This document shows, one piece after another, positions 30,971 through 36,017 of a DNA stretch of 64,000 nucleotides; the first letter of the stretch is position 1, and each line of letters starts with the position of its first letter. Made by a program: the position numbers and the translations under genes. The notes under the pieces are model-generated. The model was not told the DNA's origin. It saw only the letters and a program-made list of their open reading frames with translations, and ran no database searches. Origin of the DNA: Prolixibacteraceae bacterium (GTDB lineage: Bacteria > Bacteroidota > Bacteroidia > Bacteroidales > Prolixibacteraceae); assembly GCA_031421065.1 (NCBI GenBank), contig JANONW010000288.1, positions 2,993-66,992 of the forward strand. The letters are read 5' to 3'.

Positions 30971-33900
30971 TCAATCCTTGTACTCATCCCAGCTTTTTAT
31001 CGTCAAATCCTCAATTCCGTATTTACAGAATGCGTAAATAAACGCACTCGCTACACGTGCATTGGTGATGAGCGGAATACTGTAATCGATCGCGCTGCGA
31101 CGGATGGTGTAGCCATTGCTGATTTCACGACTGGTATGGTCTTTCGGAATGTTGATCACCAGATCAATTTTCTTTTCCTTGATTAATTCAAGTGTATTCG
31201 GATGTTTGTCTGTTTCGTCAGGCCAGTAAGCCCGGGTTGATTCTATTCCATTTTCGCTTAAAAATGTTTTTGTCCCACCTGTTGCAAACAAATTGAAACC
31301 GCGCTCAGAAAGTAATTTTGCACTTTGTATTAACTCAACTTTCGATCGCGCCGAACCAGAGGAAATCAGGATGTTTTTCTTCGGAATGGTATAACCAACT
31401 GAAAGCATAGATTTCAGAATTGCTTCGTAAAAGTTTTCGCCGATACAACCCACTTCGCCGGTTGACGACATATCTACGCCCAGCACAGGATCTGCATTCA
31501 GCAAACGCGCAAACGAGAATTGCGGCGCTTTCACTCCCACGTAATCAAGTTCGAACAACGATTTGTCCGGCTTCTGGAAAGGAGCATCCAACATTACTTG
31601 TGTTGCAATTTCAATCAGGTTGTATTTCATTACTTTCGATACAAACGGGAAACTGCGCGAAGCACGTAAATTACATTCGATCACTTTTATATCGTTGTCT
31701 TTTGCCAGCAATTGCATATTGAAAGGCCCTGTAATATTGAGTTCTTTGGCAATCTGTTTGGCTATTTTTTTAATTCTGCGAATGGTTTCGACATACAGTT
31801 TCTGAGGTGGAAAAACAATGGTCGCATCGCCCGAATGTACCCCGGCAAACTCAACATGTTCCGAAATCGCGTAAGCCACCACTTCACCGTTTTTAGCTAC
31901 TGCGTCAATCTCAATTTCTTTGGCCTGTTCAATAAATTCTGAAACGACCACCGGATGTTCTTTAGATACATTGGCGGCCAGCGTCAGGAAATGTTGCAAC
32001 TGGTCCCGGTTCGAAACCACGTTCATGGCAGCCCCCGAAAGTACATATGATGGCCTGATTAAAACCGGGAAACCAACTTCATCTACAAAAGTATAAATGT
32101 CTTCAATAGTTGTCAGTTCCGACCAGCGTGGCTGATCAATACCCAGCGTATCGCAAAGCGAACTGAACTTTTGACGGTCTTCGGCACGGTCGATATTCAA
32201 CGGTGAAGTTCCCAAAATCGGTACATTCTGGCGGTGCAGTTTCATGGCAAGGTTGTTCGGAATCTGTCCACCCATCGAAAGAACCACCCCTTTTGGCACT
32301 TCCAGGTCAACAATGTCCATTACCCGTTCGAAGGTAAGCTCATCAAAATACAACCGATCGCAGGTATCGTAATCGGTACTTACAGTTTCCGGATTGTAAT
32401 TGATCATGATCGAACGGTAGTTTTCCTTATGAATTGTGGTTATGGCATTCACGCTACACCAGTCAAACTCCACCGAACTTCCAATTCTGTATGCTCCCGA
32501 ACCCAACACGATCACCGATTTGTCGTCCTTCGGGAATTCAATGTCGTGTTCGTTTCCGTTATAAGTCAGGTACAGGTAATTCGTTTGCGCCGGATACTCA
32601 CCGGCCAGCGTATCAATTTGTTTTACCGAAGGCAGAATATTCTTGCTTTTGCGCCATTCGCGCACCTTAAGCAAATCGTTATTAATATTTTTATTGGTCG
32701 ATTTCAGTACCAAACGTGCAACCTGAAAATCGGAAAATCCTTCTTTTTTAGCCTGAAGCAGCAATGAGTCGGACAATGATTGCAGAGAATTGACTTCTTC
32801 CAGCTTATTTTTGGTTACATGAATGTTCTGTAGTTTTTGCAGGAACCATCGGTCTATTTTGGTCTTTTCGTAGATTTCGTCCACCGAATAACCTTTATTG
32901 AAAGCTTCAGCAATGACAAAAATACGGCGGTCGGTCGGATTGCCCAGTTCCTCGTCAATCTGTTCAATGGTAATTTCTTCTTTGTTGGCAACAAACCCGT
33001 GCATTCCGATTCCAACCATTCGGATACCTTTCTGGATAGCTTCTTCAAATGAGCGGCCGATCGACATGATTTCACCAACCGACTTCATCGAACTTCCCAG
33101 GTTTTTCGATACGCCGGTAAATTTATTCAAATCCCAACGCGGGATTTTACAAACGACATAGTCAAGTGCCGGTTCAAAAGCAGCGGTAGTCACTTTGGTC
33201 ATCTGGTTATTCAATTGGTGCAGTCCGTAACCCAATCCCAGTTTGGCTGCCACGAAAGCCAGCGGATAACCGGTAGCTTTAGAGGCCAGTGCCGAAGAGC
33301 GCGACAGGCGTGCATTTACCTCAATTACGCGGTAATCTTCGGAATGTGGATCGAGGGCATATTGTACGTTACACTCGCCGACAATTCCGAAGTGACGGAT
33401 AATTTTGATGGCCAGTGCCCTTAATTTGTGGTATTCTGAATTTGAAAGCGTTTGCGAAGGGGCAACCACGATACTTTCTCCGGTATGGATGCCAAGCGGA
33501 TCGAAGTTCTCCATGTTACAAACTGTGATACAGTTGTTGAAGCGGTCACGGACAACTTCATATTCCAACTCTTTCCAGCCTTTGATCGATTCCTCTACTA
33601 AAATCTGCGGCGAATAGGTGAAGGCTTTCGAGGCAAGTGATTCCAGTTCATAGTCGTTTGCACAGAAGCCACTGCCCAGTCCGCCAAGGGTGTAAGCAGC
33701 GCGGATAATGATAGGGTATCCCACAATTTTTACGGCAGCGTAAGCTTCCTTCAGGTTTATACATGCAATGCTTCGGGGCGTTTTTACATTAATTTCGGCT
33801 AGTTTTTTGGCGAAAATCTCACGGTCTTCGGTATTAATAATCGACTGTACGGGAGTTCCCAATACTTTCACATTGTATTTTTCCAAAATTCCCTGCCTGA

Positions 33901-34204
33901 ACAGTGCCACACCGCAGTTTAAGGCTGTTTGCCCACCGAAGGCCAGCAAAATGCCATCCGGTTTTTCTTTAATTATTACCTGCTCAACAAAAAAAGGAGT
34001 TATCGGCAAAAAATAAATCCGGCCTGCAATGTCTTCCGAAGTCTGGATGGTGGCGATATTCGGATTTATCAGGATGGTTTCTATATTCTCTTCTTTTAAC
34101 GCTTTCAACGCTTGCGAACCAGAGTAGTCAAACTCTCCCGCTTCGCCGATTTTTAATGCTCCCGAACCCAGAACGATTACTTTTTTGATGTCTTTATTTA
34201 TCAT
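30971..34204 (-). CDS. carB: Carbamoyl-phosphate synthase large subunit
   Basis: GEFDYSGSQA, ENFDPLGIHTGES, IEVNARLSRSS, duplicated ATP-grasp domains, MGS-like C-terminus. Confidence 0.98.
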   Translation of the reverse strand: MINKDIKKVIVLGSGALKIGEAGEFDYSGSQALKALKEENIETILINPNIATIQTSEDIAGRIYFLPITPFFVEQVIIKEKPDGILLAFGGQTALNCGVALFRQGILEKYNVKVLGTPVQSIINTEDREIFAKKLAEINVKTPRSIACINLKEAYAAVKIVGYPIIIRAAYTLGGLGSGFCANDYELESLASKAFTYSPQILVEESIKGWKELEYEVVRDRFNNCITVCNMENFDPLGIHTGESIVVAPSQTLSNSEYHKLRALAIKIIRHFGIVGECNVQYALDPHSEDYRVIEVNARLSRSSALASKATGYPLAFVAAKLGLGYGLHQLNNQMTKVTTAAFEPALDYVVCKIPRWDLNKFTGVSKNLGSSMKSVGEIMSIGRSFEEAIQKGIRMVGIGMHGFVANKEEITIEQIDEELGNPTDRRIFVIAEAFNKGYSVDEIYEKTKIDRWFLQKLQNIHVTKNKLEEVNSLQSLSDSLLLQAKKEGFSDFQVARLVLKSTNKNINNDLLKVREWRKSKNILPSVKQIDTLAGEYPAQTNYLYLTYNGNEHDIEFPKDDKSVIVLGSGAYRIGSSVEFDWCSVNAITTIHKENYRSIMINYNPETVSTDYDTCDRLYFDELTFERVMDIVDLEVPKGVVLSMGGQIPNNLAMKLHRQNVPILGTSPLNIDRAEDRQKFSSLCDTLGIDQPRWSELTTIEDIYTFVDEVGFPVLIRPSYVLSGAAMNVVSNRDQLQHFLTLAANVSKEHPVVVSEFIEQAKEIEIDAVAKNGEVVAYAISEHVEFAGVHSGDATIVFPPQKLYVETIRRIKKIAKQIAKELNITGPFNMQLLAKDNDIKVIECNLRASRSFPFVSKVMKYNLIEIATQVMLDAPFQKPDKSLFELDYVGVKAPQFSFARLLNADPVLGVDMSSTGEVGCIGENFYEAILKSMLSVGYTIPKKNILISSGSARSKVELIQSAKLLSERGFNLFATGGTKTFLSENGIESTRAYWPDETDKHPNTLELIKEKKIDLVINIPKDHTSREISNGYTIRRSAIDYSIPLITNARVASAFIYAFCKYGIEDLTIKSWDEYKD

Positions 34205-35291
34205 GGTTGCTTTTTTTATATTCGATCACATTGTTAATGAAGTCGTCGAACAAAAACTCAGTATCTGTCGGACCACTGGCGGCTTCAGGATGAAACTGAG
34301 TTGAAAAGAAAGGTTTGGTTTTATGACGGATCCCTTCGTTGGTTTGGTCGTTCACATTGGTAAACAAAGGTTCCCAATCCGTTGGCAATGTTTTCGTATC
34401 GACCGCAAACCCGTGGTTCTGCGATGTTATGAAACAACGGTCGGTTCCCTGTAACAAAACCGGTTGGTTGTGGCTACGGTGACCGAATTTCAATTTGTAA
34501 GTTTCGGCTCCGGCAGCACGCGCCAGCAACTGATTTCCCAGGCAAATTCCCATGATTGGCTTTTCTACAGCCATCGTTTTTCGGATATTTTCGACCGTTG
34601 CATCGCACAAAGCCGGGTCGCCCGGGCCGTTAGAAAGGAAAATGCCGTCAAAATCTTCGCCGCTGAAATCGTAATCCCATGGAACGACAATGACCGTTGC
34701 ATTCCGGTTCAGCAAACAACGGATGATGTTGTATTTCACGCCGCAATCGACCAAAACAATGCGGTGTTCGCCGTTTCCGTAAGTTTGTACTTTATCGGTA
34801 CTGGCAATTGCAACTAGGTTTTCCTGATTCGGATCGTAAAAGTCGATCACTTCGTCGTCAAACTCGATTTTACCGAGCAACGAACCTTTTACCCTGATAA
34901 TTTTGGTCAAGGCACGGGTGTCGATCCCGAACAAACCCGGCACTTTGTTTTCTTTCAGCCAGTCGCCCAAACTTTTGATGGCATTCCAATGGCTGTATTC
35001 GAACGAATAATCAGAAACAATTAAACCCTTTATATGAATTTTATCCGATTCATAAAACTCGTACAATCCTTGGTCTTTCGAGTCACTTGGCACACCATAA
35101 TTTCCAATCAACGGGAAGGTCGAAACGAGGATTTGGCCTGTATATGAAGGATCTGTTAAACTTTCGGGATACCCGGTCATGGCTGTATAAAAAACCACTT
35201 CTCCGGCTACCGACCGCTCATATCCGAACGATTTTCCTTCAAATGTTGTCCCGTCTTCAAGAATCAATCTGACTTTTCGTAGTTGTGTCAT
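34194..35291 (-). CDS. carA: Carbamoyl-phosphate synthase small subunit
   Basis: GEVVF, SNGPGDP, GICLGNQ (catalytic Cys), QNHGFAV, QFHPE. Confidence 0.98.
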   Translation of the reverse strand: MTQLRKVRLILEDGTTFEGKSFGYERSVAGEVVFYTAMTGYPESLTDPSYTGQILVSTFPLIGNYGVPSDSKDQGLYEFYESDKIHIKGLIVSDYSFEYSHWNAIKSLGDWLKENKVPGLFGIDTRALTKIIRVKGSLLGKIEFDDEVIDFYDPNQENLVAIASTDKVQTYGNGEHRIVLVDCGVKYNIIRCLLNRNATVIVVPWDYDFSGEDFDGIFLSNGPGDPALCDATVENIRKTMAVEKPIMGICLGNQLLARAAGAETYKLKFGHRSHNQPVLLQGTDRCFITSQNHGFAVDTKTLPTDWEPLFTNVNDQTNEGIRHKTKPFFSTQFHPEAASGPTDTEFLFDDFINNVIEYKKSNHDK

Positions 35292-35310
35292 AGTTACAAT
35301 GCTAAATATT

Positions 35311-35350
35311 AAAAAAAATGCGTCTGGCTACGGCTGTAGGGCAAACGCAT
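35311..35350 (-). terminator. Intrinsic terminator (attenuator) in the carA 5' leader
   Basis: Minus strand ATGCGTTTG-CC-CTAC-agcc-GTAG-C-CAGACGCAT then 7 more T, ending 19 bp before the carA ATG. Confidence 0.75.
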
Positions 35351-35441
35351 GGTTGTTATTTCTTAAACAAACTCTCTTTCCTATGATATTTCGTAATTTT
35401 AACCTGCTTCTTTTCAAGTACAGTTCCTTTCTGTTTTTCAT
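35328..35441 (-). CDS. Putative Arg-rich leader peptide (37 aa) of carAB, absent from the ORF track
   Basis: MKNRKELYLKRSRLKLRNIIGKRVCLRNNNHAFALQP*; 6 Arg codons; ATG 9 bp after a TAnnTTTG box; stop inside the terminator 3' arm. Confidence 0.65.
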   Translation of the reverse strand: MKNRKELYLKRSRLKLRNIIGKRVCLRNNNHAFALQP

Positions 35442-35450
35442 TGTCGGGCA

Positions 35451-35458
35451 CAAAAATA
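35451..35458 (-). promoter_or_regulatory. -7 promoter box for the carA leader
   Basis: TATTTTTG on the minus strand. Confidence 0.65.
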
Positions 35459-35495
35459 TAAATTTTTTCTGAAAAAAAGTTAGTTTTATTTATTT

Positions 35496-35534
35496 ATTGC
35501 ATATTTTTGCATCGAAAATGTATAAATATACAAA
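35496..35534. promoter_or_regulatory. Tandem ARG boxes (ArgR operator) overlapping the argR -7 box
   Basis: attgcatatttttgcatc + 3 bp + aatgtataaatatacaaa; contains TATTTTTG at 35502-35509. Confidence 0.8.
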
Positions 35535-36017
35535 ATGAAGAATCGCACTAAAAGGCAGCTTGCAATTAAACAGGCAATTCTCAATGGCCGGATCAGCAAT
35601 CAGGATGAGCTTCTGCACATCATGAAAGATCAGGGCTTCGAGTTGACCCAGGCTACTTTGTCGCGCGATTTGAAAATTTTAAAAGTTGCAAAAGTATCCG
35701 ATCAGGCATTGGGATATATATATGTCATTTCTGAAGGCCTGAATGCTGAAAACCAACGGGAAAATACACGGATTAATTTTCTTGCCGATGGGTTTCGCGA
35801 TTTGCAATTTTCGGGCTCCCTTGCTGTTATGCGAACAATGCCCGGTTATGCAAGTAGTTTGGCTGCGGTAATCGACAACTCAGAACCGTATGAAATCATC
35901 GGAACCATTGCAGGCGACGACACAATTCTGATTATCATGCGAGAAGGAGTAACGCAAAGTGATTTAATAAACAGCCTGATACTGATTATGCCCAAGTTGG
36001 AGGATAAATTGGGGTAA
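35535..36017 (+). CDS. argR: Arginine repressor
   Basis: TQATLSRDL, MRTMPGYA, GTIAGDDT arginine-binding motif. Confidence 0.96.
   Translation: MKNRTKRQLAIKQAILNGRISNQDELLHIMKDQGFELTQATLSRDLKILKVAKVSDQALGYIYVISEGLNAENQRENTRINFLADGFRDLQFSGSLAVMRTMPGYASSLAAVIDNSEPYEIIGTIAGDDTILIIMREGVTQSDLINSLILIMPKLEDKLG

Follow-up and report, generated by a model that had tools for sequence, protein, structure and literature searches.

We observed, upstream of carA in the family Prolixibacteraceae, a conserved leader that contains a predicted promoter, a short open reading frame (ORF) and an intrinsic terminator hairpin. We tentatively interpret this leader as a translation-coupled transcription attenuator that is used across the family and that most likely reports pyrimidine supply. 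Carbamoyl phosphate feeds both arginine and pyrimidine synthesis, and therefore carAB usually needs two inputs. The locus suggests how Prolixibacteraceae may provide them, namely with ArgR boxes at the promoter and a ribosome-coupled terminator in the leader. The kind of mechanism is already known, while the element itself is family-wide in Prolixibacteraceae and is not in Rfam. It is a candidate cis-regulatory family, together with a clearer, pyrBI-type leader that we describe below for pyrB.

The carA locus and its leader

Positions below refer to the window, by which we mean the whole 64,000-nucleotide stretch of DNA that was analysed. The relevant features are as follows.

35535-36017, plus strand, divergent from carA: argR (TIGR01529, E 1e-35)
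35496..35534, strand not given: tandem ARG-box-like palindromes between the divergent argR and carA promoters, as read from the sequence
35532-35519: ARG-box-like palindrome TGTATATTTATACA
35513-35496: ARG-box-like palindrome GATGCAAAAATATGCAAT
35458-35451, minus strand: -7 box TATTTTTG of the Bacteroidota type, predicted promoter of the carA leader transcript, shared without change by 19 of 19 congeners
35328..35441, minus strand: 37-codon ORF, with its ATG at 35441, 9 nt past the -7 box, and its stop codon TAG at 35330-35328
35402..35419, minus strand: 5' hairpin P1 (ACUUG ... CAGGU), found at the same place in most genera with differing sequences
35318..35350, minus strand: terminator hairpin, with a 9-bp outer stem AUGCGUUUG/CAGACGCAU, a 4-bp inner stem CUAC/GUAG and a 4-nt loop AGCC
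35311..35317, minus strand: U-tract, which with the closing U at 35318 makes a run of eight T
35292..35310, minus strand: spacer of 19 nt from the terminator to the carA ATG
35291-34194, minus strand: carA (TIGR01368, 458 bits)
34204-30971, minus strand: carB (TIGR01369, 1534 bits)
30971..35291, minus strand: carA and carB together, the genes predicted to be regulated

The first-pass annotation of this DNA had placed a -7 box, the 37-codon ORF 9 nt after it, and a hairpin with a U-run ending 19 nt before carA on the minus strand, and all of these are present where it put them, with the ORF encoding the peptide that it gave. The carA gene is the only one in the genome. It is separated by 243 bp from the divergent argR, which is the first gene of an arginine operon and is followed by a GNAT-like gene, argG, argC and argD. 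Within this spacer, adjoining argR, lie the two ARG-box-like palindromes, which are presumed from their sequence to form an ArgR operator and hence to provide an arginine input. Similar A/T-rich palindromes were read by eye 5' of the carA promoter in several other genera. Because putative ARG boxes accompany the carA promoter in several genera, arginine appears to have an input of its own. One of the palindromes in the window overlaps the -7 box of argR (TATTTTTG, plus strand).

The -7 box is present in nearly all carA leaders of the family, and for 115 of 127 leaders the spacing between box and hairpin is 98-104 nt, despite the diverged sequence in between (loci L042-L062 and L143-L162). In a few genera the carA leader is only ~50 nt long, and the leader ORF starts at approximately the 5' end of the mRNA. 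Between the terminator and the carA ATG we found no promoter box of the form TAnnTTTG, and expression of carAB is therefore predicted to need read-through of the terminator.

The leader RNA is purine-rich and U-poor (49% A and 20% T). No U-runs occur in the carA leader between the ORF start and the hairpin, so U-rich tracts of the UTP-pause type are absent. The stability of the whole 168-nt leader is unremarkable (z-score -0.97), and the part preceding the terminator folds weakly and variably, with energies between -2 and -21 kcal/mol for stretches of roughly 98 nt. In P1, both-side changes are seen at all 6 model pairs, with 80.8% of cells paired in a model-fitted alignment. Several short motifs (GGUGAAGA, AUCA(A/G)AU and AAUAAGC) are conserved in otherwise unstructured leader RNA, and their reading frame differs between genera. 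Two further resemblances, a pairing of the leader's 5' end with the U-tract and a 5' element likened to boxA, had been noted by eye and were dropped as unsupported in such A-rich sequence. An antisense ORF of 57 codons with an ATG start, opposite the leader and terminator (35299-35472, plus strand), is unlikely to be coding, as frequent 1-nt indels are found in relatives.

The terminator hairpin and its distribution

The hairpin has a folding energy of -13.9 kcal/mol. A scan with a consensus terminator missed it because of its internal loop, and it was therefore folded directly. In all genera examined a U-run is kept right after the stem; it consists of 7-10 uninterrupted U in nearly all, and is interrupted, as UUUUUUAU, in a few leaders such as L037 and L059. 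The distance from the hairpin to the carA start is 19-25 nt across the family.

To study conservation within the genus, we fetched the carA loci of 18 congeners and aligned their leaders, which share 85% DNA identity per column. The hairpin is invariant among the 19 species, and consequently no covariation is seen within the genus. At the level of the family, we used a model-fitted alignment of 40 leaders. In these 40 leaders, pairing in the outer helix reaches 99.2%; the foot of this helix, UGCG/CGCA, is constant, and compensatory changes occur at positions 6-7. Pairing in the inner helix is complete (100%), and 3 of its 4 pairs show both-side changes. Among aligned pairs, the inner stem CUAC/GUAG is exchanged for CUGC/GCAG, CCAC/GUGG or CUAU/AUAG, and a reading by eye of more diverged leaders shows CCUG/CAGG and similar stems in its place. 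Given family-wide pairing with compensatory changes, the terminator is a selected RNA structure. On this comparative evidence, the terminator before carA is real and more than a chance hairpin, and the earlier view that a genuine attenuator precedes carAB is borne out to that extent. It is important to emphasize that the pyrB terminator of the same lineage is similarly conserved in sequence, so that a near-invariant stem alone is not exceptional in this lineage.

A covariance model built from the genus leaders finds one copy in the window's own genome; a second match there, at E = 0.16, lies at the 3' end of a gene and was rejected. Matches to this model occur in 57 of 101 genomes of the family, representing 27 of 36 genera, and each of the 30 matches that were fetched (30/30) is directly 5' of carA. 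An exact-pattern scan of 185,579 species genomes gave at least 80 matches; those listed belong to Mangrovibacterium, Sunxiuqinia, Gaoshiqia, "Prolixibacteraceae bacterium" and unclassified Bacteroidota metagenome-assembled genomes, and from the taxa among these listed matches we take the family to be Prolixibacteraceae. Genera with weak matches or none still bear a diverged form of the same hairpin before carA, which was found in every Prolixibacteraceae genus examined. Such a carA leader was not seen in other families of the order. An Rfam scan of the region matched no family at E up to 10, the best hit being a chance-level match to gltS (21.9 bits, compared with a gathering score of 47.5), and our literature search found no description of this carA element in Bacteroidota.

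The leader ORF

The stop codon TAG of the window's 37-codon ORF lies within the 3' strand of the hairpin's inner stem. Because the window leader is U-poor, long stop-free frames are common, and the window ORF alone is not above chance: 11% of dinucleotide shuffles yield a stop-free frame of the same length (window p = 0.11). Its ATG is absent in 7 of the 19 species of the genus. In the species that do have it, 1-nt indels in an A-run lead to three different ORF ends: the ORF stops 8 nt short of the hairpin, within the hairpin at the TAG, or past the U-tract at a TAA. In the window itself, a 1-nt deletion switches the frame with respect to the relatives and a later insertion switches it again, so that the Arg-rich middle KRSRLKLRNIIGKRVCLR aligns with EKYQVKITKLHRKESLFK in a relative; close relatives have 0-3 Arg codons. 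The missing ATG, the indels and the low number of Arg codons in relatives together indicate that neither the peptide nor its content of Arg is conserved. An alignment of carA upstream regions, which the first-pass annotation had suggested as a check, thus recovers a conserved terminator and does not recover a conserved Arg-rich ORF; what is conserved instead is a shorter ORF.

This shorter ORF emerged from a comparison among genera. We counted ORFs that begin with ATG or GTG, comprise at least 10 codons and extend to within 12 nt of the hairpin or further, and we compared genus-averaged counts with those in dinucleotide shuffles. Such an ORF is present in 18.1 of 20 genera, where 6.6 would be expected, although the relatedness of the genera keeps this from being a clean probability. 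Three more genera have a leader ORF when the threshold is loosened; two of these have ~50-nt leaders, with the start at approximately the 5' end. The ORF is about 12-20 codons long, and it starts 36-57 nt (mostly 36-47 nt) before the hairpin, even in the ~50-nt leaders, with AUG, GUG or UUG. In aligned leaders of other genera the start codon has a fixed place: a conserved GGUGAAGA-like motif contains it, as GUG or AUG, 36-47 nt 5' of the hairpin. Relative to the hairpin, the ORF occupies any of the three frames, depending on the genus, and the corresponding stop codons are a UGA (+7), the UAG that lies in the inner stem (+17 to +21), a stop a few nt 5' of the hairpin, or one past the U-tract. 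The use of three frames suggests that the ORF has been kept through turnover of the sequence. These results give comparative support to the earlier suggestion of a pyrBI-like geometry, in which the stop codon lies in or near the terminator.

In the window genus and its sister genus, the equivalent start is a UUG located 50-58 nt before the hairpin, and in 32 of 34 parsed leaders no stop codon interrupts its frame before the hairpin. The window has TTA (35402-35400) where its relatives have TTG, and its ATG ORF shares that frame: the 3' two-thirds of the 37-codon ORF, from this TTA onwards, lie in the genus-conserved frame. Judged from these alignments, the window ORF is a lineage-specific, 5'-extended form of the conserved short leader ORF.

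Several observations bear on how the ORF statistics should be read. When length is ignored, an ATG ORF enters the hairpin in 39 of 79 unique leaders versus 37.1 expected from dinucleotide shuffles, which is no enrichment, and in terms of stop-free frame length no leader beats its own shuffles at p <= 0.05. An ORF starting with ATG or GTG is found in 0 of 4 leaders of one genus, which needs UUG, and in 1 of 4 leaders of another, where the usual form is a 9-codon ORF stopping 15-16 nt early. About a third of the window-genus leaders likewise have no ORF with an ATG or GTG start. No third-codon-position bias was seen in the one clade analysed, which has 3, 2 and 4 variable sites and is uninformative on this point.

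Proposed mechanism, alternatives and related leaders

The mechanism we tentatively propose is one in which transcription would start at the ArgR-flanked promoter and cross the purine-rich, weakly structured leader, after which RNA polymerase would encounter, 19 nt short of carA, a strong intrinsic terminator. The short leader ORF would be translated from about 36-57 nt before the hairpin to a point just before, inside or just past it; in the window, translation would begin at an ATG near the 5' end of the mRNA. If a ribosome followed the polymerase closely, it would mask the hairpin's 5' arm, such that the terminator could not form and carAB would be transcribed. If the polymerase outran the ribosome, the hairpin would form and transcription would stop. 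Pyrimidine supply would act through the speed of the polymerase, and ArgR at the promoter would take care of arginine as a separate input. What the analysis shows is the presence of these elements and how well they are conserved; from them we infer that the ORF is translated, in which direction the effect goes and to what signal it responds. The analogy to pyrBI, rph-pyrE and carAB of P. aeruginosa makes pyrimidine nucleotide supply the most likely signal.

The first-pass annotation had proposed sensing of Arg-tRNA and/or pyrimidine nucleotides. In the Arg-tRNA model, the leader peptide would sense charged Arg-tRNA, above all through rare codons (AGA, AGG and CGA), and ribosome stalling would alter the terminator and raise carAB expression when arginine is scarce. 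The codons on which this rests are as that annotation described them. The window ORF has six Arg codons among its 37 (AGA, AGA, AGG, CGA, AGA and AGA), whereas 9 of the 13 Arg codons of carA are CGT, CGC or CGG; five of the six are AGR codons, which are rare in carA and carB (7 of 56). The window's count is 6/30 in frame versus 2/30 and 1/29 in the other frames, the genus-conserved frame often has CGA AGA near its start, CGU is the second codon of the hairpin in one of the three frames, and in about 14 of 23 genera an Arg codon starts between -15 and +6 of the hairpin. However, across the genera of the family Arg codons make up a fraction of 0.096 of the ORF frame 5' of the hairpin, versus 0.101 and 0.039 of the other frames, so that the ORF equals an alternative frame of the same purine-rich RNA. 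The family's leader ORFs have no runs of Arg codons, several genera have no Arg codon 5' of the hairpin at all, and the window's Arg stretch, which stems from its frame switch, is absent in relatives. Moreover, most Arg codons are too far 5' for a stalled ribosome to cover the hairpin, and stalling there would favor termination, which is the wrong direction. We also found no conserved antiterminator. When the nascent RNA was folded without the 3' arm, only weak local pairings appeared, of the 5' flank AAGC(G) with GCGUUU and of CAAAU with GUUUG, with scattered partner positions, in line with the earlier suspicion that a strong antiterminator is absent. Finally, arginine control is already available from the ArgR boxes. 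We therefore consider sensing by rare Arg codons very unlikely, and of the proposal that the leader adds a sensor on top of ArgR, we retain the leader attenuator and the ARG boxes and discard the Arg codons as the sensor. A variant that needs no antiterminator would be direct occlusion, in which, whatever the frame used by a lineage, the terminator's foot would carry an Arg codon (AGA at -13, CGA/AGA at -2, or CGU as second codon of the hairpin) and a ribosome waiting there for Arg-tRNA would hold the 5' arm open. This variant, if true, would join arginine charging with ArgR control in one element at the arginine/pyrimidine branch point, but we regard it as very improbable indeed.

Other explanations would dispense with the ribosome. 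A trans-acting, family-specific RNA-binding protein or small RNA could bind the leader motifs (GGUGAAGA, AUCA(A/G)AU or AAUAAGC) or the near-invariant foot of the hairpin, with the ORF being incidental. Conservation of short motifs in unstructured RNA while the frames differ by genus would suit such a factor, as would the recurrence of AUAAGC on both sides of the terminator, the ~100-nt leader length conserved in most genera and the covariation of P1. On the other hand, there is no candidate protein: no PyrR was matched (NF003549) in this 99.3%-complete genome, whereas NF003549 did match 12 of 14 control genomes, and RF00515, the PyrR binding motif, had no match at E up to 10. In addition, there is one copy of the motif per genome and hence no regulon, the genera with ~50-nt leaders have no 5' motifs and yet retain the hairpin and the ORF, and GGUGAAGA coincides with the start codon of the leader ORF. 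On balance, we think a trans-acting factor unlikely. The leader might instead sense nothing, with a constitutive, leaky terminator setting a low basal level of carAB or releasing a stable short 5' RNA, and all regulation left to ArgR. The hairpin with its U8 looks strong and no conserved competing structure was found, and for P. syringae PMC4997734 reports a small transcript from the carA 5' UTR, which is attributed there to attenuation. However, the strictness of the terminator across the family, its placement at 19-25 nt and the geometry of the ORF are hard to explain for a mere damper, and a strong unregulated terminator in front of an essential biosynthetic operon would be costly, so we judge this explanation quite unlikely. 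Still less can be said for a metabolite-binding riboswitch, for example one that binds a compound of the pyrimidine or arginine pathway. Its attractions are the promoter-leader-terminator layout, the fixed leader length in most genera and the presence of two small covarying hairpins. Against these stand the weak folding before the terminator and the unremarkable whole-leader z-score given above, the lack of a conserved multi-helix core, the genera with leaders of only ~50 nt, and the absence of Rfam matches at E up to 10, which together make a riboswitch extremely improbable.

As Arg codons are not enriched and our search turned up no conserved antiterminator, the reading that is left is the geometry of pyrBI and rph-pyrE. 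In pyrBI (with its leader pyrL, in E. coli and Salmonella) and in rph-pyrE, an intrinsic terminator likewise lies just 5' of the structural gene in a pyrimidine context, an ORF likewise ends at, in or past the hairpin, and a closely following ribosome blocks termination with no need for an antiterminator helix. The carA leader differs from pyrBI in that its ORF is only about 12-20 codons long and starts about 40 nt from the hairpin, frequently with GUG or UUG and without a Shine-Dalgarno sequence. The absence of a Shine-Dalgarno sequence is usual for Bacteroidota. The carA leader is also purine-rich and has none of the U-rich pause tracts, and its pyrimidine signal is proposed by analogy. With such starts, some of them near-leaderless, the carA leader could be a useful case for studying the coupling of transcription and translation.

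Among other known systems, the trpL, hisL, pheL and leuL attenuators likewise have a short translated leader before a terminator. However, they have clustered cognate codons and the 1:2, 2:3 and 3:4 helices, while in the carA leader neither Arg enrichment nor a conserved antiterminator was found. The Gram-positive PyrR attenuators (RF00515) also place a terminator in the leader of carbamoyl-phosphate or pyrimidine genes, but neither their protein nor their motif was found here. A further one is the carAB operon of P. aeruginosa. As cited in PMC4997734, that operon is under arginine control at the level of transcription and under pyrimidine control possibly by attenuation with a leader peptide, and control of a bacterial carAB by leader peptide and attenuation is to that extent already described. 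The operon and the dual logic are the same, whereas the phylum is different and there is no sequence relation.

A leader closer to the pyrBI type is found upstream of pyrB in the window's own genome, at the following place.

Contig C399 (outside the window), L163, about 1280-1490: pyrB leader, with a -7 box TAATTTTG and an ATG 7 nt later

Here a 65-codon, U-rich ORF crosses the terminator (CCAACAG...CUGUUGG followed by U8) and stops 15 nt before pyrB. In pyrB leaders of the family, ATGAAAC comes 7 nt after the -7 box and opens an ORF of 65-81 codons. Of 17 parsed loci, 15 have this ORF crossing a conserved terminator and ending either 13-58 nt beyond it or in an overlap with the pyrB ATG. This layout and the N-terminus (MKR..QY) are common to many Prolixibacteraceae genera, and the pyrB leader has no match in Rfam. 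From its sequence and layout, pyrB in Prolixibacteraceae has a clear pyrBI-type leader. The lineage therefore uses such switches as well as near-leaderless leader ORFs, and this favors the mechanism proposed for carA. The U-rich pyrB leader contrasts in composition with the purine-rich carA leader of the same family.

A minor observation concerns the sequences that flank the carA terminator. In most genera AUAAGC is found on both sides, in the form AAUAAGCACA 5' of the hairpin and AUAAGCGAUCA 5' of the carA start. In the window genus both flanks differ in parallel, being AAUAACAACC and UUGUAAC/UUGCAAC (window positions 35351-35360 and 35292-35310).
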